This document shows positions 2,834 to 18,831 of a DNA stretch of 64,000 bases, piece by piece; the first letter of the stretch is position 1, and the number at the start of each line of letters is the position of its first letter. The notes beneath the pieces were generated by a model. That model saw only the letters and a program-made list of their open reading frames with translations. It was not told where the DNA came from and did no database searches. The position numbers and the translations under genes are program-made. The stretch is from IMG/VR virus record IMGVR_UViG_3300014913_000759, positions 1-64,000 of that record. One strand, 5' to 3'. Source of the stretch: a virus.

Positions 2834-3247
2834 TTAGTCACCCTCTACATCCTGAATTTTGTGTATTTCTTCCGTTATCATCTGCCTGGTCATATTTTCC
2901 ACGGTGCTTCTAACGAAAAAGTATGATATTGTCATAAGACTAAAAGTTATAAGTACTACCGCAATCATAGTGGTTACGCGTGCTTTTATACTCTTAGTGG
3001 TTTTGCCTATACACGCTATGTTCTTTTTCATCTCGGCACAATCATAACCTCTAGTCACACACACAGAAGCCATGTCATTAAGGTCAGGCTGCTTTTCAAT
3101 ACACTTTGTTAAATCACCGACTACACGCGTTAAATCTTTTATAGCCTCAGTATTCTGGTCGCTAGAATTTTTGACCTGGTCAAAAAGCTTTATCGCTATA
3201 CTTTCAGGTATTTTATCGCCATCAGCTACCATGATTTTACACCCCAT
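2834..3247 (-). CDS. Coiled-coil protein with one transmembrane helix
   Basis: Hydrophobic stretch MIAVVLITFSLMTISYFFV. Confidence 0.6.
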   Translation of the reverse strand: MGCKIMVADGDKIPESIAIKLFDQVKNSSDQNTEAIKDLTRVVGDLTKCIEKQPDLNDMASVCVTRGYDCAEMKKNIACIGKTTKSIKARVTTMIAVVLITFSLMTISYFFVRSTVENMTRQMITEEIHKIQDVEGD

Positions 3248-3443
3248 CTGGTGATTTTAGTTTATTACCGCACATCGGACAAAACTGTATTCCCAGACCA
3301 TATTTATGAACCTGAGTATGAGCCCTTTCTTTGGATAACTCTATCCAATTTATTATCCACCCATACTCAGGTATATATTTAAACAGGTCTTTGTGATTAC
3401 TCTTTAGATTTTTCCATTCCTCACATGTACAAAAATCAATCAT
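3237..3443 (-). CDS. Small Zn-ribbon hypothetical protein
   Basis: CxC near the N-terminus and FCPMCG at the C-terminus. Confidence 0.6.
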   Translation of the reverse strand: MIDFCTCEEWKNLKSNHKDLFKYIPEYGWIINWIELSKERAHTQVHKYGLGIQFCPMCGNKLKSPDGV

Positions 3444-3446
3444 TTA

Positions 3447-3983
3447 TTACCTGAGTGTTCCGTCATAAGCTCTTGGGTAATCATACTTTCCACCGAAAGA
3501 TCTCCATCCCTCAGTTGGGTAATTCTTGCCTGAGACCCATGGGCCACGAGAAGCCTGTGTGTCAGAGACGTCCATCCCAGGCGCATCGATTTGCGCATTA
3601 GGTGTGTCACGACCCATAAGATCGTCCTTGCCACCCATGGACATACCCATTCTTACAAACTGTTCGTCGCGAATCGTCTTGACGGTGGAACCCCAAACAT
3701 AAGGATTCGGATTAAATTCAGCGTCAAAACCACGTGCAGTACCACGAAGGTCATGTACGCCAAAAGCATCGGCGCCTTCCATAATGCCCTTCATCTTGAA
3801 GCCATAATTAATACCCGTATAATCGTCACTTCTCCTGGTTCCGTATCTAAGTGCGCCAAAATTGGACATTTTCATATCCAGATTTCTCATCTGGTGCGAC
3901 GAAGACCCAGTGGCCCAATCGTGGCCGATTGCATGCGGCTCAAGTTGGAAAAAGTTCCATTCGTTAGAGTTAGTGTTAGACAT
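3447..3983 (-). CDS. Hypothetical G/D/aromatic-rich protein
   Basis: GGAGG RBS and its own promoter at 4035-4063. Confidence 0.7.
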   Translation of the reverse strand: MSNTNSNEWNFFQLEPHAIGHDWATGSSSHQMRNLDMKMSNFGALRYGTRRSDDYTGINYGFKMKGIMEGADAFGVHDLRGTARGFDAEFNPNPYVWGSTVKTIRDEQFVRMGMSMGGKDDLMGRDTPNAQIDAPGMDVSDTQASRGPWVSGKNYPTEGWRSFGGKYDYPRAYDGTLR

Positions 3984-4034
3984 GTTTTACATCCTCCGTA
4001 AAATAATATGCGAGGCTTTAGCGCCTCTACTTAT

Positions 4035-4063
4035 ATTATAGTACAGAGACCGCGATTTGTTAA
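4035..4063 (-). promoter_or_regulatory. Sigma70-like promoter TTAACA-N17-TATAAT
   Basis: Intergenic; same architecture as the promoter at 5326-5354. Confidence 0.7.
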
Positions 4064-4072
4064 GAATTTTTT

Positions 4073-4633
4073 TTAAATAAAGTCAAAAAGTCTGACTTTT
4101 ATACCGCTCGTCTTCAACAAATAGTCCGTAGTTTTATCGTAAATAGTGAAACTTGTTACAATAAGTTCTTCTACACCAGCATTGATGATCTTAACCAGGC
4201 ATTTCGCACATGGAACTCCGCAGGTCATATACATCGCGCTTCCTCGAGTTTCAATACCCATACGCGCAGCGTTCAAGATGGCATTTTCTTCGGCATGTCC
4301 TGCTGGGCACCATTCAATACCCTCGCCGGAGGCCAGGTTTAAGAGCCTCCTTGGGCACTGGTCTTTGATTCTTGAATTAAATAGTTTACCGTCCGGATCA
4401 CTTTTGCGAACTAAGTCTGCGTCGGGCAAACTGTCCCAATAGGCTTCGAAGAGATTTGCATCCTCAAACCAGCGTTGGTTGCACGGAGGCACACCGCGTG
4501 GAGGGCCGTTATAACCAGTCGAAAAAACTGATTTATCCCTCACTAGGATGGCTCCGATCTGGCGAGAGTAACACTTACTGTTATTAGCTACGGCTTCGCA
4601 GATCCCATGAAAATATTCATCCCAACTAATCAT
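4073..4633 (-). CDS. dCMP deaminase (ComEB family)
   Basis: SKC..RQIGA, TGYNG, HAEENA and PCAKC Zn motifs. Confidence 0.93.
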   Translation of the reverse strand: MISWDEYFHGICEAVANNSKCYSRQIGAILVRDKSVFSTGYNGPPRGVPPCNQRWFEDANLFEAYWDSLPDADLVRKSDPDGKLFNSRIKDQCPRRLLNLASGEGIEWCPAGHAEENAILNAARMGIETRGSAMYMTCGVPCAKCLVKIINAGVEELIVTSFTIYDKTTDYLLKTSGIKVRLFDFI

Positions 4634-4988
4634 TTTCCTCTACCTCTCCGTAATACTTATACATCATATTAAATCCAGCCAATATGACGTTCTGTTTGTA
4701 CTGTATGAACGCCTGTCTCGCATCATATATATAATCATTTATGGACAAAACATCAACATAATGTCTAAACAACACCTCACGCATATACTCTCTCATGTCC
4801 TGTTCAATCATATCGGTGTCACGACTACTGTTAACTGCGTTGCTTAACGCCACAAGACGTTTGCTTAGTTCATTCTCAGCGGTGGCGGCATCCCGTCGAA
4901 CATGGATATCGGCTGCTTTTGCATCGATGTGTGTTACCATCCATAGTTGTCCACTGTCTGATGTTTCGACATTACTGAGCTTAATCAT
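4626..4988 (-). CDS. Hypothetical protein
   Basis: ORF coupled to neighbours. Confidence 0.6.
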   Translation of the reverse strand: MIKLSNVETSDSGQLWMVTHIDAKAADIHVRRDAATAENELSKRLVALSNAVNSSRDTDMIEQDMREYMREVLFRHYVDVLSINDYIYDARQAFIQYKQNVILAGFNMMYKYYGEVEEND

Positions 4989-5001
4989 TTCAGAAACTCC
5001 C

Positions 5002-5283
5002 TTACTTTTCGTCTGAATTTTCTTCAGTGTCCAATACTTCGTTCTCTAAAATAGAAGACCAAGACAAATCAACTTCATCTAGATTCTTCATAAGCTTTTC
5101 TTTATTCTCTTCTGTGCTATACTGCAAAAGAACCATGCGTTCGATTTGTGCACAGTTTGGACATTTAATATCCAGAACAATCGCCGCGTCCTCTGGTTGT
5201 GGTTTTATTAGGCAAAAACCCTTGGTTCCACAATCACATTCGTAAGTTATCTTGTTGTCCTCGTTTCCTGTTGCTCGAATCAT
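5002..5283 (-). CDS. Zn-ribbon hypothetical protein
   Basis: CDCG...CPNC; AGGAGG RBS before ATG at 5283. Confidence 0.65.
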   Translation of the reverse strand: MIRATGNEDNKITYECDCGTKGFCLIKPQPEDAAIVLDIKCPNCAQIERMVLLQYSTEENKEKLMKNLDEVDLSWSSILENEVLDTEENSDEK

Positions 5284-5325
5284 AATGGTAATCCTCCTAT
5301 CCTTTTGAGGTAACCCTCTACCATT

Positions 5326-5354
5326 ATTATAGTACAAAAACTATGTTTTATTAA
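5326..5354 (-). promoter_or_regulatory. Sigma70-like promoter TTAATA-N17-TATAAT
   Basis: Shares TGTACTATAAT-N4-GTAGAGG with the 4035 promoter. Confidence 0.65.
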
Positions 5355-5637
5355 GTCTTTTCTTGTAATCTTCACTATAAATAACACATAATACCATAAT
5401 AACAATACTAAATAATATATTCAAACCGTTACAGAGCATTAGGCTTGGGCTACTGTTGTCATATCCATATCTAAACCAAGAAACTTGTCCAAAATATATA
5501 ACAAACCAAGCCAACAAGCTAATGTCGTCGCTAGACTTACGCTTAAGTAGCTTCAGGATCTGGGGTATCTCCGCTATCGCCGTCACAAACCCCACTATTA
5601 TCATCCAAATCTCCATCGGGCTCAGCATGTTCACCAC
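5341..5637 (-). CDS. SemiSWEET / PQ-loop family membrane transporter
   Basis: Three TM helices; IPQILK..KRKSSDDIS, W..YG and terminal Asn motifs. Confidence 0.85.
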   Translation of the reverse strand: MVNMLSPMEIWMIIVGFVTAIAEIPQILKLLKRKSSDDISLLAWFVIYFGQVSWFRYGYDNSSPSLMLCNGLNILFSIVIMVLCVIYSEDYKKRLNKT

Positions 5638-5815
5638 CTACGGTTACTGTTAGCAATCCTGGCGCAGGGTAAAACCCTGTGCACGCTGTATTATTTTCGC
5701 ACGGTTTGCATGTCGTGCAGTCTCCCATTCCTTTCGGTCTCATCCAGGTTGGAAGAGAAAACTTCGGTCTAAACAATTGGTTTATACATTTTTTGTGTTC
5801 TTCACAAGCAGACAC
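5543..5815 (-). CDS. Cys-rich hypothetical protein
   Basis: CxxCxxC..C cluster; GGAGG RBS; 3' end overlaps the SemiSWEET gene by about 95 nt. Confidence 0.5.
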   Translation of the reverse strand: MSACEEHKKCINQLFRPKFSLPTWMRPKGMGDCTTCKPCENNTACTGFYPAPGLLTVTVGGEHAEPDGDLDDNSGVCDGDSGDTPDPEAT

Positions 5816-5827
5816 AATGGCCTCCTG

Positions 5828-6178
5828 TTAGTCTAACAATTTGCCAAAAAGAGGGATCATGGTACCCTCGACACCAGGTATTTCCGGAGTCACATCAACA
5901 ACAAAGGCTTTGCCGGCGAAACCCTTACTGTCCTTGGTCTCGCTGTACACAGCCTTAAGCCAGATGTATTTTGCTGCTCCGAATATGGAGGTTTTTCTTC
6001 CTGAATAATTATCGATGAGAATCCTTGCTTTGGTGGCATTGCCTTTCTTATAATAGGATCCATCATAAATATAGTCACTGTCGCCGCCTACCATTTTACC
6101 GCTTTCCATGATCATAAAGCCGCCGCCCTCACCGACTGGCGTCTTAAATGTGATTTTATACTTACCATCCTTTAACAT
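5828..6178 (-). CDS. GrlR-family beta-barrel protein
   Basis: KDGKYKITFKT..GEGGG....GKMVGGD..YIYDGSY...SIFG resembles the GrlR N-terminal pattern. Confidence 0.65.
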   Translation of the reverse strand: MLKDGKYKITFKTPVGEGGGFMIMESGKMVGGDSDYIYDGSYYKKGNATKARILIDNYSGRKTSIFGAAKYIWLKAVYSETKDSKGFAGKAFVVDVTPEIPGVEGTMIPLFGKLLD

Positions 6179-6179
6179 T

Positions 6180-6791
6180 TTATTTCCCCACTTTCCTAAA
6201 AGATTTTCTATGGTATTCACTGGCGCCATAGAGTCTAATCATTTCGATGTGTTCTTTGGTTAAATAACCTTTGTTTTTTATCCAGTTATAAACTGGTAAA
6301 ACATAGTGCAACTCCGCCATAAGCTCGTCGCGCGTAGTCTTGGCTAAAATACTGGCTGCTGCAATAGAGATGGAAATATTATCACCCTTAATAATTTGTT
6401 GCTGTGGTAGGTGTAATTTTTTAATCTTTACGTTACCATCTATAAGAACATGATCTACATACTCCAAGCCGGCAATAGCCTTACGCATAGCTATCTTAGT
6501 TGCCTCTAATATATTAATTTCATCTATAATTTTGTTATCGATAACGCCGATGCCGTAATCACAGGTATTTATAATAACCTCACGCATAGATTCTCGGCGG
6601 CGAGGAGTCATCTTCTTTGAGTCTTTGACTTTTCCTTCAAGCGTGGACAAGGAAGCATCTGGCACCCTCACAGCGGCAGCGACTACAGGGCCTGCGCCGG
6701 GGCCTCGGCCTGCCTCGTCGACGCCTGCGATATAAGAGTACCCATCAGCCTTAAGCTTGTTTTCATAGTCATAAGATGGTAAAGTTTCCAT
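6180..6791 (-). CDS. rnhB: Ribonuclease HII
   Basis: GVDEAGRGP, DSKK, LIDG, KGD..SISIAAASILAK, NKGY, HRKSF. Confidence 0.96.
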   Translation of the reverse strand: METLPSYDYENKLKADGYSYIAGVDEAGRGPGAGPVVAAAVRVPDASLSTLEGKVKDSKKMTPRRRESMREVIINTCDYGIGVIDNKIIDEINILEATKIAMRKAIAGLEYVDHVLIDGNVKIKKLHLPQQQIIKGDNISISIAAASILAKTTRDELMAELHYVLPVYNWIKNKGYLTKEHIEMIRLYGASEYHRKSFRKVGK

Positions 6792-7030: not shown

Positions 7031-7368
7031 TACTTGTCTCCTTCGTCTTCTTTTGTAGCCGTAGTGGTAAAGCGGCTTAGATCTCCCGTAAGAGGGTGAC
7101 CTGTACTCACTGGTGCAACTTGATTTTGTGCTGCCTTTTTTTGCGCCTCAGCTAACATGCTTTGAAGTAGTTCTTTGCGCTCCTTCTTACTCATCCAGAA
7201 CCAATCGGGCCTGCGAGTAGTGGGAATAGGCTGCTTAAAACCAACTTTTTCCACATCCTTCTTGAACTTGTCACAGACACGTCTTTTCTTCAGCTTTACT
7301 TTGGTCTTCTTAAAACTACAAAAGCCGCCTGTTTGGTTCAAACAAATACCACAAATCACTTTTCCCAT
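7030..7368 (-). CDS. Cys-containing basic hypothetical protein
   Basis: CGIC..C...C; lies downstream of the promoter at 7390-7417. Confidence 0.6.
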   Translation of the reverse strand: MGKVICGICLNQTGGFCSFKKTKVKLKKRRVCDKFKKDVEKVGFKQPIPTTRRPDWFWMSKKERKELLQSMLAEAQKKAAQNQVAPVSTGHPLTGDLSRFTTTATKEDEGDK

Positions 7369-7389
7369 AATACACCTGCCTTTCCTAAA

Positions 7390-7417
7390 AACATAATACA
7401 TTTTTCACATATGTCAA
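7390..7417 (-). promoter_or_regulatory. Sigma70-like promoter TTGACA-N16-TATGTT
   Basis: Same TGTATTATGTTTT element and spacing as 43797-43824. Confidence 0.6.
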
Positions 7418-9937
7418 CTATATTTCGCACGATCCTCCCTTACATTGAATCGGTTCCACGAGTCTATCAAACTTATAATCATAACAAGGAACATCTACAT
7501 AAAAAGATTTATCCATAAACTCCAAAAGATTAGGTATCGATACTTTTCTAACATATATTGTTCTGTCCTTATCTTGTAAAGTGGTTTCAACGCCAATTTT
7601 CTCAAAACACGAACGTAATTTTTCTACAGATTTTTTATCGAAACCATCTACATGAAATCTTACGTTTGTTCCATCTTTTTTTACTGAGCCATCTCCTACA
7701 AACCACTGCCTTAGAATGGTTGGTGTAAACTCTAAGTCTTCTGGTACCGTCTTCTTACCATTGGGATACCATTTTTTATACAAAACACCCAACTCAACGC
7801 ACGAAATTGATTTGTATCTATAGTAGATGGCGCTGTTTTCTCGGTGTTTATACTCGTCAATATTTCCAGACCTCACTAATCCCTCTGAAGAAAATACTCT
7901 ATCCAGCCAACACACATATTCATAATATTTTGAAGCGTGCGTATAACAACCTAAGTGTCCGCCGTTAACTTTATTAATGGAGCCATCACCTAACAACTCA
8001 CCTTCTATAAGTTCTAACAACAAAGGACTTATGGGAATGCTTCTATCCAATTTAATCAACTCTTCTCCTTCAAATTTAACTATATCATAGATTGTGTTTT
8101 CGTGACAACCAAAAATATTTCCAATCTCCTCATAAGTCATACCTTTATTATGTAAAAACCTTATCGTTTCTATATCTGGTACAAATCTTATATTTTTTCC
8201 TTTACCTTCGCGTACAGGAATACCATACTCTTTCATCCGCAGGGCGACAAGTGCTTGTGAAACTCCCAATTTTTTTGCCACTTTATGCTGCGGCAATCTT
8301 TGGTTAGTATACAAGTCTTCTAATATTTCCTTACTGATGTCATACTTTCTGCCCTTTTTTTCAACAGGTTTGTTTAAAACCTGTTGATTCTTACAACCGT
8401 CTCTATAAATCGCTATTGCTTTTAACCCAAATTTGTATGCCAGCTTTAAAATTTTTGATACATCCTCGACTGTTGCTGAGTGTGGTAAATTAATCGTCTT
8501 AGAAATTGATTGATCTATCCACTTACCAACAGTTGCCATGACTCTCAAATGCTCTTCTGGTTTTATTTCATGCGCCGTTACCAGAGCCCTAGGATAGATG
8601 TCTTTATACTCATCTTTAATACTAAAAGAATCTTTTATAACCTTATCTATAATTTTAGATTCATATTCAAAAGCGTAATACGGCTCTATAGAAAAATAAG
8701 AGTCGGATATTCGAGATGTAGACCCACTAGGTGCTATAGTCAATCTGTTAGAGCAGCGCATATATTTGTATTTCCCCTTAAATGAAGAATCGTCAAAATC
8801 CTGAAAGTTACCGCGCTCTTCGCCCAAATTTATACAACTCTCTAAAGACACTCGATTAATAAAACAAAACAAATTATCAATCATATCTATACTTTCCTGC
8901 GAGCCATAACGCAGGCCTAGCTTTATAAGAAATGGTGCCAGGCCGAAAAAATACAAACCTTGCCGCCTAGTTCTTAATGCAAACTCTCTGATTTCTGGTA
9001 TAGGGTACATACACATGTCAATATTGTTGTCAAGAAATCGGTGGCCTATATGTATTAAATATTCGAGTTTGTCCCAATCAACTTTTTTCTTGTTTTTTGG
9101 TCCCTTCAATATTTTATCTAAATTTATACCAGATAAATTACAACTTTCATACGGCGACATGCATATTTCATGGCATGGGTTTACTGAGTCTATAGGATAC
9201 TTAGGCAACGTATTAAACTTATTCATGGTGTCTATGAACACTATATTCGGGTCGCCTGCTCTCCAGTTTGATTCGGAAACAGCTTCCCACAATTCAATAG
9301 ACCTAGGATCGTCAGAGAAAAGCTTACTCATAAAATCGTCCGTACAAACCACAGAAATATTTATATTAGACCATTTATCGTTGTTTCTCTTCATATTAAT
9401 AAATTTTTCTACATCTGGATGCTCTATATCAAGAATGGCTGCTCCTGCTCCACGCCTTTTTCCGCCCTGTTTTATTGTTTCTATCATCTGGTCGAATAAA
9501 GTTATAAAGGAACAAACGCCAGAGCTAAATCCACCCGTTGACAGCCGAGCATTCTCTTCTCTTAGATTAGAAAAATTCCACCCGACCCCGCCTCCGTACT
9601 TAAAAATCATAGCACTATCACAAAAAGTTTTAAGAATAGACTCCATGCTATCCTTTATTGGTAAGGCAAAGCAAGAAGACAACATCGGAAATTCGGTGCC
9701 AGCGTTAAACAAAATAGGCGATGCTGGCATAAATTCTTGGTTTATCATACATTCATAAAAAAGTTCTTTATATTTTTCATAATCTCCTTTATCATAATTA
9801 TATTCTGCTCTAGCTATAAAATTTGCGACACGCCGGAATAATTCCTCCGGCGTTTTTTCTATATGATTGCCTCGAATATCTCTTAAAAAATATCTCTCTT
9901 CGAGTATCTGCAAGGCATTTTTTGAAAATTTGCCCAT
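7418..9937 (-). CDS. nrdJ: Class II (B12-dependent) ribonucleotide reductase with an in-frame HTH-LAGLIDADG insertion
   Basis: SPILFNAG, SSCF, GGGVG, QGGKRRGA, NPCHE, SCNL, TIAPSGS, DQSISKTIN, YRDG (no YY pair); C-terminal CKGGSCEI. Confidence 0.9.
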   Translation of the reverse strand: MGKFSKNALQILEERYFLRDIRGNHIEKTPEELFRRVANFIARAEYNYDKGDYEKYKELFYECMINQEFMPASPILFNAGTEFPMLSSCFALPIKDSMESILKTFCDSAMIFKYGGGVGWNFSNLREENARLSTGGFSSGVCSFITLFDQMIETIKQGGKRRGAGAAILDIEHPDVEKFINMKRNNDKWSNINISVVCTDDFMSKLFSDDPRSIELWEAVSESNWRAGDPNIVFIDTMNKFNTLPKYPIDSVNPCHEICMSPYESCNLSGINLDKILKGPKNKKKVDWDKLEYLIHIGHRFLDNNIDMCMYPIPEIREFALRTRRQGLYFFGLAPFLIKLGLRYGSQESIDMIDNLFCFINRVSLESCINLGEERGNFQDFDDSSFKGKYKYMRCSNRLTIAPSGSTSRISDSYFSIEPYYAFEYESKIIDKVIKDSFSIKDEYKDIYPRALVTAHEIKPEEHLRVMATVGKWIDQSISKTINLPHSATVEDVSKILKLAYKFGLKAIAIYRDGCKNQQVLNKPVEKKGRKYDISKEILEDLYTNQRLPQHKVAKKLGVSQALVALRMKEYGIPVREGKGKNIRFVPDIETIRFLHNKGMTYEEIGNIFGCHENTIYDIVKFEGEELIKLDRSIPISPLLLELIEGELLGDGSINKVNGGHLGCYTHASKYYEYVCWLDRVFSSEGLVRSGNIDEYKHRENSAIYYRYKSISCVELGVLYKKWYPNGKKTVPEDLEFTPTILRQWFVGDGSVKKDGTNVRFHVDGFDKKSVEKLRSCFEKIGVETTLQDKDRTIYVRKVSIPNLLEFMDKSFYVDVPCYDYKFDRLVEPIQCKGGSCEI
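7468..8370 (-). mobile_element. In-frame homing endonuclease (two HTH + two-motif LAGLIDADG) without intein splicing blocks; ends approximate
   Basis: LIEGELLGDGSI and WFVGDGSV motifs, WYPNGKKTVP, terminal YKF; HTHs QHKVAKKLGVSQ and TYEEIGNIFGCHENTI. Confidence 0.82.
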
Positions 9938-9957: not shown

Positions 9958-10395
9958 TTATCCAGTGTGACCAAAGCCACCTGTGCCTCTATCAGTATCT
10001 CCGCTCAATTCCAGCATTTCTATAAAGTGTGCTTTGTAAACCGGTGTGAAAATAATCTGCGCTATTCTATCACCTTTAAATATCTGAACTTCTTCTTTAC
10101 CTAAGTTTATCAGAGCCACACAAATCTCTCCTCTATAGCCTGAATCAATCGTTCCAGGCGTGTTAACAACTGTAAGGCCTTTCTTAAGAGCCAGGCCACT
10201 TCTTGGTCTAATCTGCGCGTCTACACCTTTAGAAAATTCCATACTAATACCTGTATGGGTTAGCCTTATCTCTCCTGGTTTAATAGTAAAGTCTTCTATA
10301 GAGAATAGGTCTGCCCCAGAGTCGTCATTGTGACTGTACGCTGGTGTCCTCGCATCCTTACTCATTTTCCTAAACAACACCTTTATGTCGTTCAT
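9958..10395 (-). CDS. dut: Trimeric dUTPase
   Basis: SGADL, RPRSGLA, GTIDSGYRGE, GDRIAQ, RGTGGFGHTG. Confidence 0.97.
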   Translation of the reverse strand: MNDIKVLFRKMSKDARTPAYSHNDDSGADLFSIEDFTIKPGEIRLTHTGISMEFSKGVDAQIRPRSGLALKKGLTVVNTPGTIDSGYRGEICVALINLGKEEVQIFKGDRIAQIIFTPVYKAHFIEMLELSGDTDRGTGGFGHTG

Positions 10396-12302
10396 ATGTC
10401 TCCTCCGCACTTCTTGCAAACGACCTTCGTCCCATACTTATCATCAGTAGGAACAGCTGCCATTTCCGTTCCGCCACATTTCTTATCGCCATTGACTCTG
10501 CGCCCGCAAGCGTCTTTGAGCCAACAGTCTCCCACTAAAGCGTCTGATTCCATCGGAATGAGACTAAAGTATCTACCAAAACCATCTTTCAATGCATTTA
10601 CAGTAATCTCTGAAACTTCTTTAACCTGATCTTCACGAACTTCTACAATCACCTCATCGTGTACAGTAGAAATCAGCCGTGCGTTATAACCAGACAGCCG
10701 TTCAACCAAATAAATCATAGACTGTTTAATAGTATCAGCGTTGGCACCTTGGATACCAGCGTTTTTGGCCTGGCGCTCGATACTACGTTTTATAGTCTTG
10801 AAATTTGGATCAGTGTAAGATGGCATTCTGTAAAATCTTTTTCTGCCGCTAACTGTTTTACTGTATCTTTTGTAAACAGCATCTCTGGCTGACTGGTCTA
10901 AGAACTTTTTAACACCTTTATACCGTGCAAAATAATTCTTAATAATATCATCAGCTTCCTTCTCACTGATCTTAAGTCTTCTTGCTAAACCAAACTTAGA
11001 CAGTCCGTAACACAAACCAAAGTTAAGTGCTTTGGCGGCATCGCGCTGCTTAGGCAAGACTTGATCCATCGGAACACCAAAAGTCTCTGCTGCGGTTCTG
11101 GTATGTAAATCGATTCCTCTCGCATAACTTTCAACAAAAATAGGGTCTTGGGAAAGATTGCCCAAAATCCTCAACTCCGCACCACTCATATCAGCGGTGA
11201 TCAGCTTATAGCCTTCGGGAGCAATAAAACAACTTCTAAACATTTGTTTTTTCGGTATGTTCTGTAGGTTCGGCCTAGAGCTACTCATCCTACCTGTGGC
11301 TACCATCTGCTTGAACTGTGTGTGTAACCTACCGGTTGCCTCATTAATTTTATCTATCAGTGGTTCTGCGTAGGTTGAAACCAGCTTAGCATATTTACGA
11401 TAACCCAGTATAGAGTCGATTATAGGCATGCCTTTGTACTTGGCCAACTCGCCATTGCTCGTACTTTCCAAAGGCAATCCATACTTCTTAAGAGAGCTTA
11501 GAAGCTGCTTGGGGCTGTTGATATCGACCACTGATACACCAAACAATGTGGTCTGGTCTTCAACGTGCGCTAAAAGGTTGGCAATCTTTTTGCCCGCCTC
11601 CTGCATCTCCACCTCAGCATCACCCATTATTGCTCGCCACTTATGAACGTCCAACTTCATCCCGTTAAGTTCCATCTCACAAAGTGGCTTAGTAAATTCA
11701 AATTCTAACCGGCAAACATCTTCAAAACCATGCTCCACAATTTTAGGGAGCTGTAGGTTTCTAATCTCTGGCAGAACAGCAACGTCGTTTGAGGCATACT
11801 CAATCTGATAAGGCTGGAACTCTTGGTAATAATCTGCAAAAGTATCTCTGGGCTGCTTGTCCATAGCCAAACCTAGGTACTTCTTAACTAGGTAGTCGAG
11901 GCTCGACTTACCATGCAGCCCTAGATTAAAAAGCTGCTCGACAATCATTGTGTCATAGATATTTTCTACATAAAATCCAAAGTTTGCCTTTATCATCTCC
12001 ATATCGTACGATGCGTTCTGGAGAATCTTAAGCTGTTTGCCTGTGAGAATTGGTTTTAATACATCAATATGCAGGCTGCTGTGTGGCGTGTCGTGTCTAA
12101 CATCAAACACAAAAGCCTGGTTTGGTATGCCCAGCTGAACCAGTGAGACTCTAGAATTATGTGGGTCTAGGCCGGTGCCTTCCGTATCCATACTCAATAC
12201 GTCGTGATTTACCATTTGAGACATGGCCTTACGTGCCGATTCCTCGTCTGTTATATACTGGTACTTAGGCTTAGGCAAGGTGAGTACGCCGTCTGTTAAC
12301 AT
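10392..12302 (-). CDS. polA: Family A DNA polymerase (3'-5' exo + pol, no 5'-3' exo) with a C-terminal Cys4 extension
   Basis: DTEGTG, NASYD, YASND; TGRMSSSRPNLQNIP, DMSGAELR, KALNFGLCYG (Phe at the 762-equivalent position), VHDE. Confidence 0.96.
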   Translation of the reverse strand: MLTDGVLTLPKPKYQYITDEESARKAMSQMVNHDVLSMDTEGTGLDPHNSRVSLVQLGIPNQAFVFDVRHDTPHSSLHIDVLKPILTGKQLKILQNASYDMEMIKANFGFYVENIYDTMIVEQLFNLGLHGKSSLDYLVKKYLGLAMDKQPRDTFADYYQEFQPYQIEYASNDVAVLPEIRNLQLPKIVEHGFEDVCRLEFEFTKPLCEMELNGMKLDVHKWRAIMGDAEVEMQEAGKKIANLLAHVEDQTTLFGVSVVDINSPKQLLSSLKKYGLPLESTSNGELAKYKGMPIIDSILGYRKYAKLVSTYAEPLIDKINEATGRLHTQFKQMVATGRMSSSRPNLQNIPKKQMFRSCFIAPEGYKLITADMSGAELRILGNLSQDPIFVESYARGIDLHTRTAAETFGVPMDQVLPKQRDAAKALNFGLCYGLSKFGLARRLKISEKEADDIIKNYFARYKGVKKFLDQSARDAVYKRYSKTVSGRKRFYRMPSYTDPNFKTIKRSIERQAKNAGIQGANADTIKQSMIYLVERLSGYNARLISTVHDEVIVEVREDQVKEVSEITVNALKDGFGRYFSLIPMESDALVGDCWLKDACGRRVNGDKKCGGTEMAAVPTDDKYGTKVVCKKCGGDI

Positions 12303-15977: not shown

Positions 15978-16931
15978 TTATCTCACCACCTTATTATTTA
16001 GTTCCTCCTCTAACTCTACCAGTGATACCGTGGCTGTGCCCATTTTGCCAACCACAATCCCTGCAGCTACATTAGATATATAAGCTGCTTCTTTCATTGT
16101 ATATCCGGCCGATACAGCGAGTGTAAATGCTGCTATAACCGTATCGCCTGCACCTGATACATCAAAAACTTCCTTGGCTTCTGTATCAATATGATAGAAA
16201 TCACGGTGTTCGTGCAAATCCATACCGTGTTTGCCTCTGGTTATAAGAAGCTGTGGCAACTCGGCTTGTTCCATTATAATTTCTGCGGCATCTATGATAT
16301 TCTCTGAGCCCGAAGCGGCTACTGCCTCTCGATAGTTCGGTGTGATTATGTTTGCGCCTCTATATTTTGAATAATCCGTGCCGTTTGGATCGACGGCCAC
16401 AAATACGTTGGCTTCCTCTGCCTGCTCCATTATGGAATGAAAAACACCAGGAGTTACGACGCCTTTTCCATAGTCAGATATAATGACGGCGTCGAATCGG
16501 CCGATCTGACCTACCAAGCCTAAGAAATAACTCTCAATATCCTCAGTTAAATCATATGTCATCTCTCTATCAACACGGACTACCTGTTGGTCTCTAGACA
16601 CTATCCGAGCCTTGCGCGTTGTGACGCGGCCGGGATCTGTGACCAAACACTCATCAATATTTTCAGTTCTTTCCAACATACCCATGAGTTTCTTGGCATT
16701 TGTGTCATCACCAATCACGCCGGCCATCATAACTTTGGCCCCCAATGCTGCTAGATTGTTCACGACATTGCCTGCACCACCAAGGACAGAGTGCTCACCC
16801 TCCACCAGAACTACCGGTACCGGTGCTTCAGGAGACATCCTATCAATTCTACCGTAGACATACTCATCTATCATTACGTCGCCAACTACAAGAATATGCT
16901 GTCTATCGAAACTATTTACTTTTGTAATCAT
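15978..16931 (-). CDS. rfaE1: D-glycero-D-manno-heptose-7-phosphate kinase (HldE domain I)
   Basis: GDVMIDEY, RMSPEAPVPV, GGAGNV, SDYGKG, TPN, DVSGAGDT, VGKMGTATV. Confidence 0.94.
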   Translation of the reverse strand: MITKVNSFDRQHILVVGDVMIDEYVYGRIDRMSPEAPVPVVLVEGEHSVLGGAGNVVNNLAALGAKVMMAGVIGDDTNAKKLMGMLERTENIDECLVTDPGRVTTRKARIVSRDQQVVRVDREMTYDLTEDIESYFLGLVGQIGRFDAVIISDYGKGVVTPGVFHSIMEQAEEANVFVAVDPNGTDYSKYRGANIITPNYREAVAASGSENIIDAAEIIMEQAELPQLLITRGKHGMDLHEHRDFYHIDTEAKEVFDVSGAGDTVIAAFTLAVSAGYTMKEAAYISNVAAGIVVGKMGTATVSLVELEEELNNKVVR

Positions 16932-18831
16932 TTTTAGACGTAGCTCCTTTTATGCCCAACCAATCTTGGACTTCTCGAACACGATTATTTACTTTGTCTG
17001 CTGCTTTGCACATATCTAAGTCAACACCGTTATCGTCGCCCCAATGATAAAAAGCCTTAACATCTTTTGGAAAACAATTATGTGTTAGTATATTATTTGC
17101 CACATATTTACCACTTTCAGTCTCTATGGCGAAAACTGTTTTAGGTGTATTTATAATCTCTACAGACTTTACTTTTGTTGCCCAGCCCGTCGGCATGATT
17201 TTACAGTTGGGCGAATCATAAAAAGTATCTGTCTTATACCTACAAACATCAAAATTTAGTCTGTTGGTCCAAGAACACACACGCTCGACTGCCGCACGTG
17301 TAGAAATCCTGATGCTCTTGCCGTTCCTGCTAATATTAGGATTTATACCGTTGGCCAACAGTATACTATCCATTTTCATTATCAAATCGGTGCTTTCTGA
17401 ATGGCATTCTATCGTCCCATCACAGTAACTACCATCGCCGTCGAGCCAACCACCAATTATATTCCTCGTTAGATGTTCACTTAGGGCTGTATATTTTATA
17501 TTTTTGTCATGTGCATTATGGCCCAAATTTAACCTTTCAAACAATCTATACAGCCACATGGATCGTACACGCACAATCCAACAAACAGACCTACCAAAAG
17601 TGCCGTCAGTTGCTTGCAGACGTTTGTAAGGATTCAATCCATATTTAGACAAAGTATTACACACCTCATTGGCTAAGTGTTCCTCATGCTTTCCAAAACT
17701 GAAATAAACCTCTTCTTTTTTATTATATATATTTGAACAGCCCTCAGCTAAATACAAACCAATAACTCGGCATATAGGCTCATCTAAACCTACATATTCA
17801 TGCCATACTTTAACATAACCGTTGGGCCTTTTGCCCATAGCAATTTCTACCGAACCAAGTGTATTTTTTTCTGATGGAACATACAACCAACTATCATCTG
17901 TTATCTCGCACAATTTTTTTTCTTCAACATCTACGAAATCTTTAGTAATCATGTGTATGTGATCTTCTGACCCTTCCAACATTCTTCCGTTGCTCACAAT
18001 CTTTATTGTTCTATCCACCAGTCTAGATGATAAACCAGTTACTCTGGTATAGCTTGTCCCATCAAACACCAGCATACCTGGCGAAACGTCTTCAATATTC
18101 ACAAACTCATGTGTGTTTGTTATGAGCTTCGTTCCTGCCACCAAACACTTGCCCCCATAACCTCGATGGCCATCGTGGCCCGGCACATCTGCGTGGCTGT
18201 TTCCAATACGTTGATCGGAAAGAAACATCTTCTTCATATCATCATAAGGAACATTGATTTTCTCACACACATCATATATCTCGTTTAAGAAGGACACCTT
18301 TACAGCAAAGAAACAATTACACATATATTTAACCGCCTCAGCGCCTTCCCAAGTAGTATGATAAATAGGTGTGTGAACAAACCGAACCCTAAAAAGCTCT
18401 TCCAATATCTCCGTCACGCCGCGATCGCCGCCGAATATAAAACGTGCTGAGTTTATGAAGTCCAATTTGGCCTGACGTTCCGTCAGAAACTCTGGCATAA
18501 AAACAAAATCGTGGTCATCATATTTTTCAGCATACCTTCTGGTCGTTCCTGGGATAGCTGTGCTTCTTAAAACAATAATCTTACGTTCTTTTGCCACACG
18601 AACTATACTTTCTACGGCATCATCCATACTAGAAAGGTCTTGGCTGCCATCATCATTCATGGGTGTAGGAACACCCACAAAGATATAAGGTGTAGAATTT
18701 ACTGTGTCACCTAAAGAATCATATGAATTATCATACTTGTCGTAAATCTTAACGTTAGCATGTAGATAGAAGCCGTGAGTCATTGCTCTACCTAAAAATC
18801 CAAACCCAATTATACCAATAGTTGGTTTCAT
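16912..18831 (-). CDS. UDP-glucose/GDP-mannose 6-dehydrogenase (short phage type), intein-interrupted
   Basis: GFGFLG, GVPTP, RST..PGT, PEFL, KY..N.F.A.K.SF.NE, D.RIG, GYGGK|C-FPKD. Confidence 0.92.
   Translation of the reverse strand: MKPTIGIIGFGFLGRAMTHGFYLHANVKIYDKYDNSYDSLGDTVNSTPYIFVGVPTPMNDDGSQDLSSMDDAVESIVRVAKERKIIVLRSTAIPGTTRRYAEKYDDHDFVFMPEFLTERQAKLDFINSARFIFGGDRGVTEILEELFRVRFVHTPIYHTTWEGAEAVKYMCNCFFAVKVSFLNEIYDVCEKINVPYDDMKKMFLSDQRIGNSHADVPGHDGHRGYGGKCLVAGTKLITNTHEFVNIEDVSPGMLVFDGTSYTRVTGLSSRLVDRTIKIVSNGRMLEGSEDHIHMITKDFVDVEEKKLCEITDDSWLYVPSEKNTLGSVEIAMGKRPNGYVKVWHEYVGLDEPICRVIGLYLAEGCSNIYNKKEEVYFSFGKHEEHLANEVCNTLSKYGLNPYKRLQATDGTFGRSVCWIVRVRSMWLYRLFERLNLGHNAHDKNIKYTALSEHLTRNIIGGWLDGDGSYCDGTIECHSESTDLIMKMDSILLANGINPNISRNGKSIRISTRAAVERVCSWTNRLNFDVCRYKTDTFYDSPNCKIMPTGWATKVKSVEIINTPKTVFAIETESGKYVANNILTHNCFPKDVKAFYHWGDDNGVDLDMCKAADKVNNRVREVQDWLGIKGATSKNDYKSK
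17077..18147 (-). mobile_element. Intein (357 aa) with LAGLIDADG endonuclease, inserted at the catalytic Cys of the dehydrogenase
   Basis: Block A CLVAGTKL; block B SEDH; GLYLAEG and GWLDGDG; YVANNILTHN|C. Confidence 0.95.

Follow-up and report, generated by a model that had tools for sequence, protein, structure and literature searches.

How does a homing endonuclease come to lie in the middle of an essential enzyme, in frame with it, when nothing in the gene appears able to remove it? This question is raised by an nrdJ gene found within positions 1 to 64,000 of the IMG/VR virus record IMGVR_UViG_3300014913_000759, the whole stretch of 64,000 nucleotides that was analysed here and that is called the window. 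At 7418..9937, on the minus strand like all of its parts described below, a single unbroken open reading frame (ORF) of 839 aa plus a stop codon encodes a fusion of a ribonucleotide reductase (RNR) of the NrdJ type with an endonuclease. An initial annotation, made from the sequence without database searches, had proposed that a homing endonuclease is fused in frame inside NrdJ with no intein or intron, and this is borne out by the unbroken ORF and by Pfam, AlphaFold2 (AF2) and Rfam. In our view, the gene probably gives rise to a permanent, unspliced NrdJ-endonuclease chimera that keeps a working tail and whose nuclease homes into insert-free alleles.

One reading frame from RNR core to redox tail

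The chimera is composed of a class II RNR core (aa 1-521, 8375..9937), a 305-aa insert (aa 522-826, 7460-8374) and the native RNR C-terminal redox tail VEPIQCKGGSCEI (aa 827-839, 7421..7459). There is no stop codon on either side of the insert, and the host frame is continuous from the core through the insert to the tail. The stretch of about 300 aa with two helix-turn-helix (HTH) domains and two LAGLIDADG motifs, which had been placed between the YRDG end of the core and the tail, is thus recovered at its predicted position by Pfam.

The core is an adenosylcobalamin-dependent, class II NrdJ, which scores 492 bits with TIGR02504 (NrdJ_Z), above the 399.95 bits required by this model, and stays under the threshold of TIGR02506, the model for class I. 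Its closest solved structure is the B12-dependent NrdJ of Thermotoga maritima (1xje, E 1e-85). Pfam detects Ribonuc_red_lgN at aa 3-82 and uses the RNR barrel profile to its final position, at aa 511, where the sequence YRDGCKNQQVL that ends the core begins (aa 511-521, 8375-8407). The active-site residues are Cys89 (SCFAL), Asn253, Cys255 and Glu257 (NPCHE) and Cys266 (ESCNL). At the other end of the protein, the tail segment EPIQCKGGSCEI (aa 828-839, 7421-7456) carries the redox pair as EPIQC832KGGSC837EI, with Cys832 at 7442-7444 and Cys837 at 7427-7429, in exact agreement with the location first given for the pair (7427-7444). The last conserved nuclease motif is separated from the stop by 16 codons, close to the 15 or so that had been estimated.

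In an alignment of 17 sequences with and without insert (alignment A1), C89, N253, C255, E257, C266, C832 and C837 are all invariant. The protein therefore possesses the thiyl Cys of NPC.E, the redox Cys pair and the C-terminal CxxxxC shuttle expected of a class II RNR. Since the active-site Cys, Asn and Glu residues and both tail Cys are conserved in every insert-bearing member, the alignment speaks for a chimera that has kept its RNR function and that needs and uses its tail.

The fusion is not an artefact of assembly, a risk that the initial annotation had itself raised. In the Logan assembly of the source sediment sample, the region 7300-8500 is spanned with zero differences; a hydrothermal vent metagenome that belongs to another study contains an identical 151-nt unitig across the left junction (8281-8431); and the same layout is present in 12 other protein clusters, built at 90% identity and coming from independent assemblies. 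Misassembly at the junctions is ruled out by these three lines of evidence.

The core/insert junction also carries, exactly on the codons QQVLNKPVE, a perfect 11-nt inverted repeat with a 5-nt loop (8361-8387). Because it is absent from six relatives, this repeat is probably due to chance or recent, and it was rejected as a part of the mechanism.

A complete endonuclease without start or stop

The insert begins with the left junction and a linker (aa 522-535, 8333..8374), which differs in sequence and length between members, with indels of whole codons, and which is predicted to be flexible (predicted local distance difference test score, pLDDT, about 49). It is followed by a first three-helix HTH domain (aa 536-571, 8225..8332; Pfam HTH_50, HTH_24 and Sigma70_r4; AF2 helices at insert residues 15-50) and a second one (aa 589-623, 8069..8173; Pfam HTH_23, HTH_38 and HTH_28; AF2 helices at insert residues 68-102), the corresponding Pfam matches extending over aa 535-573 and 588-622 of the ORF. 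Then comes a monomeric, two-motif LAGLIDADG_2 nuclease domain (aa 638-824, 7466..8026), matched by Pfam at aa 642-798 (PF03161, E 1e-20, 74.6 bits for a cut-off of 25). Its LAGLIDADG motifs are GELLGD651G (aa 646-652, 7982-8002) and WFVGD749GS (aa 745-751, 7685-7705), and it ends with CYDYKF, the C-terminal motif of the nuclease family (aa 818-823, 7469-7486).

The AF2 model of the insert, built on a 108-sequence alignment, has a mean pLDDT of 89.5 and shows a three-helix bundle for each HTH domain, flexible linkers and a monomeric nuclease in which the alpha-beta-beta-alpha-beta-beta-alpha fold of LAGLIDADG enzymes occurs twice. When this model is compared with known structures using Foldseek, the best match is I-SceI (1r7m, E 3e-11, template modelling score of 0.71 on the target), followed by I-WcaI. 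The first HTH region resembles the two-HTH protein 2lvs. The Asp pair of the insert (D651 and D749) is aligned with the catalytic Asp pair of the I-SceI LAGLIDADG motifs. Both residues are present in 13/13 close members, as well as in the bacterial clade described below, and the nuclease is, judged from these residues, most likely still active.

Free-standing relatives of the insert (250-380 aa, 25-36% identity) consist of at least one N-terminal HTH followed by LAGLIDADG_2, and have ...CYxYKW/F almost directly ahead of their stop, which is exactly the end point of the insert. Because these relatives begin with HTH and end at CYxYKW/F as the insert does, the latter is, by this comparison, a complete ORF of the free-standing type, set in frame without a start or stop of its own. 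The endonuclease family is large, with about 32,000 clusters at 50% identity (E<=0.001, profile search of 1.84 billion representatives), and the best 150 of these clusters are free-standing proteins with a variable number of HTH repeats. Three long profile matches (P0268, P0170 and P0137) were considered as further host-gene fusions and rejected, as they are multi-HTH endonucleases. Among GTDB representative genomes, there are 8 relatives of the free-standing type, none of which adjoins nrdJ.

The insert itself does not qualify as a free-standing gene, having neither its own start and stop nor any sign of being expressed separately. Expression of the nuclease by itself from an internal promoter is unsupported, the number of promoter-like sites being 12 versus 10.0 +/- 3.7 in shuffled sequences, and no conserved internal Met or start is found in the insert in alignment A1.

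An IMG/VR contig (L178, 2032-4953) had appeared to encode a fusion of the endonuclease with PolA, but it was rejected since a stop codon separates two ORFs: a free-standing endonuclease relative starts five codons past the stop of UDG-PolA, in the same frame. Being one stop codon short of a C-terminal fusion, this arrangement suggests a possible route by which such fusions arise.

Relatives, empty site and fate of the insert

A search of 5.8 billion proteins yielded 12 further clusters (P0002-P0013, 834-868 aa), which are 58-87% identical to the window protein over 100% of its length and have the same domain order. The fusion has no close relative in IMG/VR, where the top NrdJ match is at 39%, and none above 38% in the GenBank phage collection. 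In two related phage contigs, L082 and L083, genes are arranged as in the window, in the order PolA-dUTPase-NrdJ-...-Cys-rich protein-RNase HII, yet identity to the window reaches only 48-60% for PolA, dUTPase and RNase HII, which points to phages of a single lineage that have diverged considerably. The source record is 92,464 bases long with a CheckV completeness of 35%, so that the whole phage genome may exceed 200 kb by a wide margin.

Among uninterrupted relatives, the two closest, P0014 (532 aa) and P0016 (539 aa), read YRDGCKxxQVL, four variable residues, (K/E)PIECxxGxCEL and stop. Alignment with such uninterrupted NrdJ had been expected to define the empty site, and comparison of these two alleles, as proteins, places it at QVLxxxx^(E/K)PIEC (the caret marking the insertion point), that is, about 4 residues past QVL and about 4 residues ahead of the first tail Cys. 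The insertion thus lies in the linker that precedes the redox pair, as had been proposed, but the mention of a flexible linker has to be corrected, since only about 8 residues extend from QVL to the first Cys in insert-free enzymes.

In the core tree, the insert-free P0014 is nested with the insert-bearing P0011 and P0012 (100/100), and a single insert-bearing clade is rejected by the approximately unbiased (AU) test (p = 0.008), for a group that was defined after the tree had been seen. Another member of the same NrdJ clade, P0132 (1541 aa, from a Logan assembly), has an Asp-to-Arg change in motif 1 and has lost its CYxYKF end, while its frame is open and its tail intact, and it is best read as a decaying nuclease copy held in frame. 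Judged from their sequences, P0014 and P0132 fit the cycle of gain, decay and loss of a selfish endonuclease. A shorter protein, P0121 (206 aa, on a 10.6-kb ENA contig), which starts within the nuclease domain, ends with the NrdJ tail and is 58% identical to the window protein, may be a frameshifted or split member of the family.

The insert tree reproduces the groupings of the core tree, with an insert evolving at 2-3x the rate of the core and never more similar than the core in any pair. The ratio of nonsynonymous to synonymous substitution rates (dN/dS) is usable in one pair only (L082 and L083), synonymous sites being saturated in nearly all the others; in this pair the core has a value of 0.05 and the insert one of 0.12, the HTH part and the nuclease part both being at about 0.12. 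These values point to an insert under purifying selection and to a fusion that has persisted beyond synonymous saturation.

These observations can be assembled into a mechanism. The gene would be translated as one 839-aa chimera, made of the NrdJ core, a flexible linker, the two HTH domains, the nuclease and a 13-aa tail, from which nothing would be removed. The tail Cys pair would then reach and re-reduce the active site on a longer, mobile tether with three predicted flexible linkers. The nuclease, made only as a part of NrdJ and early in infection, would cut the insert-free nrdJ of co-infecting relatives at ...YRDGCKxxQVLxxxx^EPIECxxGxCE, and recombinational repair during co-infection would copy the insert into the cut allele. 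The essential tail would be lost with any stop or frameshift in the insert, and this would keep the frame open. We infer from sequence and predicted structure the RNR activity of the chimera, the activity of the nuclease, its target site and its homing.

Several points weigh against this scheme. (i) The residues right beside the insertion point are poorly conserved, which is atypical of a homing site, and recognition would have to rest on the codons of YRDGCK..QVL and EPIxCxxGxCE. (ii) A direct sign of recent horizontal homing is, to judge by the trees, absent among the sampled members, because the tree of the insert agrees with that of the core and in no pair is the insert more identical than the core; long vertical retention under purifying selection would also fit a role beneficial to the host. 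(iii) The folded nuclease is only 6-11 residues away from the Cys pair, and such a bulky domain would have to approach the mouth of the active site. (iv) No RNA run is among the sequencing runs listed as containing this sequence. (v) On sequence alone, splicing or processing chemistry outside the known kinds is conceivable.

A domesticated domain?

The second of these points bears on the possibility that the insert is a domesticated domain kept for the benefit of its host. It could serve as a DNA-binding tether that brings dNTP synthesis to replicating DNA, regulate nrdJ as an autoregulator, or be used as a weapon on rival phages. In line with this possibility, the insert and the core have been inherited together past the point of synonymous saturation and give congruent trees, the HTH and nuclease parts are similarly constrained, and in no pair is the insert more similar than the core. 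Foldseek also matches the insert model to WhiA, a transcription factor that is derived from LAGLIDADG proteins and carries an HTH. Co-opted LAGLIDADG proteins such as WhiA usually lose the catalytic Asp. Here, such a loss of the catalytic acidic residues is found neither in the window protein nor in its 12 relatives, an Asp-to-Arg change being restricted to motif 1 of P0132, and the bacterial clade keeps both Asp as well. Furthermore, the insert is dispensable, as indicated by its absence from P0014, nested among bearers, and by its decay in P0132, and its architecture, a nuclease with two HTH, is the same as in thousands of free-standing relatives. Domestication is thus an unlikely explanation, and the autoregulator or DNA tether that had been suggested at first is not supported by the kept catalytic Asp, the decaying copy and the lost copy. 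Overall, a selfish endonuclease life cycle accounts for the pattern better than co-option does, although the purifying selection leaves the latter open.

A second occurrence in bacterial NrdJ

Long proteins containing this type of endonuclease were sought in a database search, and 18/18 turned out to be NrdJ. Five of the 18 (P0133-P0136 and L132) belong to a distant NrdJ clade, which is GC-rich, has about 30% core identity to the window protein and possesses a TSCPD domain and a zinc-finger tail. In this clade, a one-HTH endonuclease is inserted at the equivalent place after the barrel, directly after ...YRAGSRENILT; it too lacks a Hint domain and keeps both Asp. This recurrence in NrdJ, after the barrel in both clades, counts in favour of a site preference of the endonuclease. 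The contig of L132 (Ga0209853_1000018) is part of a bacterial chromosome, on which nrdJ (3162-6443) stands in the order nrdR, interrupted nrdJ, glyoxalase, citrate synthase. The TSCPD domain of this bacterial NrdJ has lost Cys residues that uninterrupted relatives conserve (TGCG changed to TPRG, and a GGCAASQ segment deleted).

In the endonuclease tree, the phage inserts are monophyletic and so are the bacterial ones. As the two groups are not recovered as sisters, the tree may accommodate one origin of these insertions as well as two.

Absence of a splicing element

Could the insert nevertheless be removed, so that the mature enzyme would resemble the insert-free P0014? No Hint or intein family is detected by Pfam in the 839-aa ORF, even at E<=1, as the initial annotation had anticipated. 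The AF2 model of the insert contains no beta-rich Hint module and leaves no room for one, because the part before the nuclease is all helical and only 13 residues follow it. The residue at the left junction is V, A, L, P, S, K or N in seven sequences, with no conserved nucleophile, and no conserved Cys, Ser or Thr is found at the left end of the insert; at the right junction His-Asn is lacking, and position +1 has Glu or a gap, never C/S/T. The features that define an intein, namely Hint blocks A, B, F and G, a nucleophile at position 1 and His-Asn followed by C/S/T, are therefore all lacking in the insert.

The same applies to the ribozyme core, the non-coding flanks and the broken host frame that define group I and group II introns: Rfam gives no intron match between 6800 and 10200 at E<=10 (E-value mode). 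Because all the junction indels are of whole codons and purifying selection on the protein extends over the full length of the insert, a non-coding ribozyme core cannot, on these comparisons, be accommodated.

The scans used are able to detect Hint domains, as they do so in three proteins serving as positive controls. One is encoded in the window itself (16912..18831, minus strand): this 639-aa UDP-glucose/GDP-mannose dehydrogenase carries a canonical intein (Intein_splicing at aa 279-585, LAGLIDADG_3 at aa 456-506), a phage sugar-nucleotide enzyme being an unusual intein host protein. The second is the family A DNA polymerase of L083 (1-2937, PJEL010000160.1), with Intein_splicing, two LAGLIDADG_3 stretches and Hom_end; unlike this one, the PolA of the window (10392-12302) has no intein. 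The third is P0132, where an intein at aa 788-1196 lies inside the barrel and ends with HN followed by T, the post-barrel insert being present too.

Excision by an unrecognised protein-splicing, proteolytic or RNA-level route could still be invoked, given the conceivable chemistry mentioned above and the predicted flexibility of the linkers at both sides of the insert. It is made very improbable by the lack of any Hint fold or motif or intron model match, by variable junction residues, and by an insert that is coding and constrained over its whole length, with whole-codon junction indels and no space for a ribozyme; simple proteolysis, moreover, would part the redox tail from the core. That the insertion has inactivated tail re-reduction, leaving a gene that would be an endonuclease carrier or rely on an external reductant, is hardly credible, for although the nuclease folds only 6-11 residues from the Cys pair, this pair, its EPIxC context and the active-site residues are invariant through saturating divergence, core dN/dS is 0.05, and the interrupted gene of the bacterial clade directly follows nrdR on the chromosome.

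We therefore retain an unspliced chimera as the probable state of this protein. The initial view of a splice-free selfish element tolerated ahead of the redox tail gains support from the ends that the insert shares with free-standing relatives, from the existence of insert-free alleles and from the lack of Hint domain, splicing residues and intron, and the permanence of the chimera is supported by its persistence beyond synonymous saturation with an invariant Cys pair.

Comparison with known systems

Among the closest analogues are the in-frame rps3-LAGLIDADG fusions of fungal mitochondria (PMC7902536). There too, a LAGLIDADG ORF is joined in frame to a host coding sequence with no intein or intron between them, but these fusions are organellar and rps3 is itself within a group I intron, whereas the NrdJ fusion has a phage or bacterial host and an I-SceI-like LAGLIDADG_2 nuclease with N-terminal HTH modules. 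In rps3 fusions, the endonuclease is appended at the C-terminal end of the host protein, and is not known to be internal with a functional tail after it.

In Aeromonas phage Aeh1, nrdA is split by the free-standing mobE and is still functional (PMC3653736, PMC3045599). This case likewise associates an endonuclease gene of the free-standing type with a phage gene for an RNR large subunit, without any splicing element and with a functional RNR. It differs in that nrdA is divided between nrdA-a and nrdA-b, two ORFs with products that reassemble, and in that the endonuclease is a separate HNH protein; the NrdJ fusion is unsplit, with core, endonuclease and tail in one polypeptide.

Inteins of RNR genes such as those of RIR1, with LAGLIDADG endonucleases, are also endonuclease-bearing, in-frame insertions in a conserved gene of DNA metabolism. 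None of their hallmarks, a Hint domain, a Cys, Ser or Thr at position 1 and a His-Asn followed by C/S/T, is present in the NrdJ insert; their endonucleases are of the LAGLIDADG_3 type, versus LAGLIDADG_2 here; and the NrdJ insert occupies a linker rather than a catalytic motif. The monomeric, intron-encoded LAGLIDADG_2 enzymes I-SceI and I-WcaI (1r7m, 6x1j) share with the insert its fold and its aligned catalytic Asp residues, but identity is only about 20%, and I-SceI resides in a mitochondrial group I intron and is devoid of the two N-terminal HTH domains. Finally, intron ORFs can be fused to their upstream exons (PMC8393795), and their endonucleases are then translated by read-through from the host gene. 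In that case, the ORF is still cut out of the mRNA by a ribozyme, and the exon after it does not continue in frame, while in the NrdJ fusion the downstream host codons are in frame and a ribozyme is undetected.

From these comparisons, none of the analogues appears to be an internal, unspliced endonuclease in a single-chain phage or bacterial enzyme with a native functional tail downstream. No description of this arrangement was found in the literature searched, whose incomplete coverage means that this is not proof of absence.

Meaning for NrdJ and for homing endonucleases

A whole endonuclease ORF is thus tolerated, unspliced, in an essential enzyme, and in at least two NrdJ lineages, one phage and one bacterial. 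For an essential gene, it is unusual that such a layout has been long retained in related phages and, separately, in some bacteria. If the chimera is active, the C-terminal shuttle of RNR works across a 300-residue folded insertion, and the gene is a natural case of endonuclease expression wholly coupled to that of a host protein. The sampled members represent three stages of the endonuclease life cycle, namely intact, decaying (P0132) and insert-free (P0014), which makes this cycle testable. The large, uncharacterised I-SceI-like family to which the insert belongs, with its modular HTH arms, may also be of interest to meganuclease engineers.

A wider proposal can be put forward only tentatively. 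Besides introns and inteins, homing endonucleases might have a third way to reside in essential genes, unspliced in the permissive linker of NrdJ, as a module useful to its carrier, either by cutting the nrdJ of rival phages or by tethering dNTP synthesis to DNA. Such usefulness would explain both the purifying selection over saturating divergence and the finding of the same solution in a phage and a bacterial clade.

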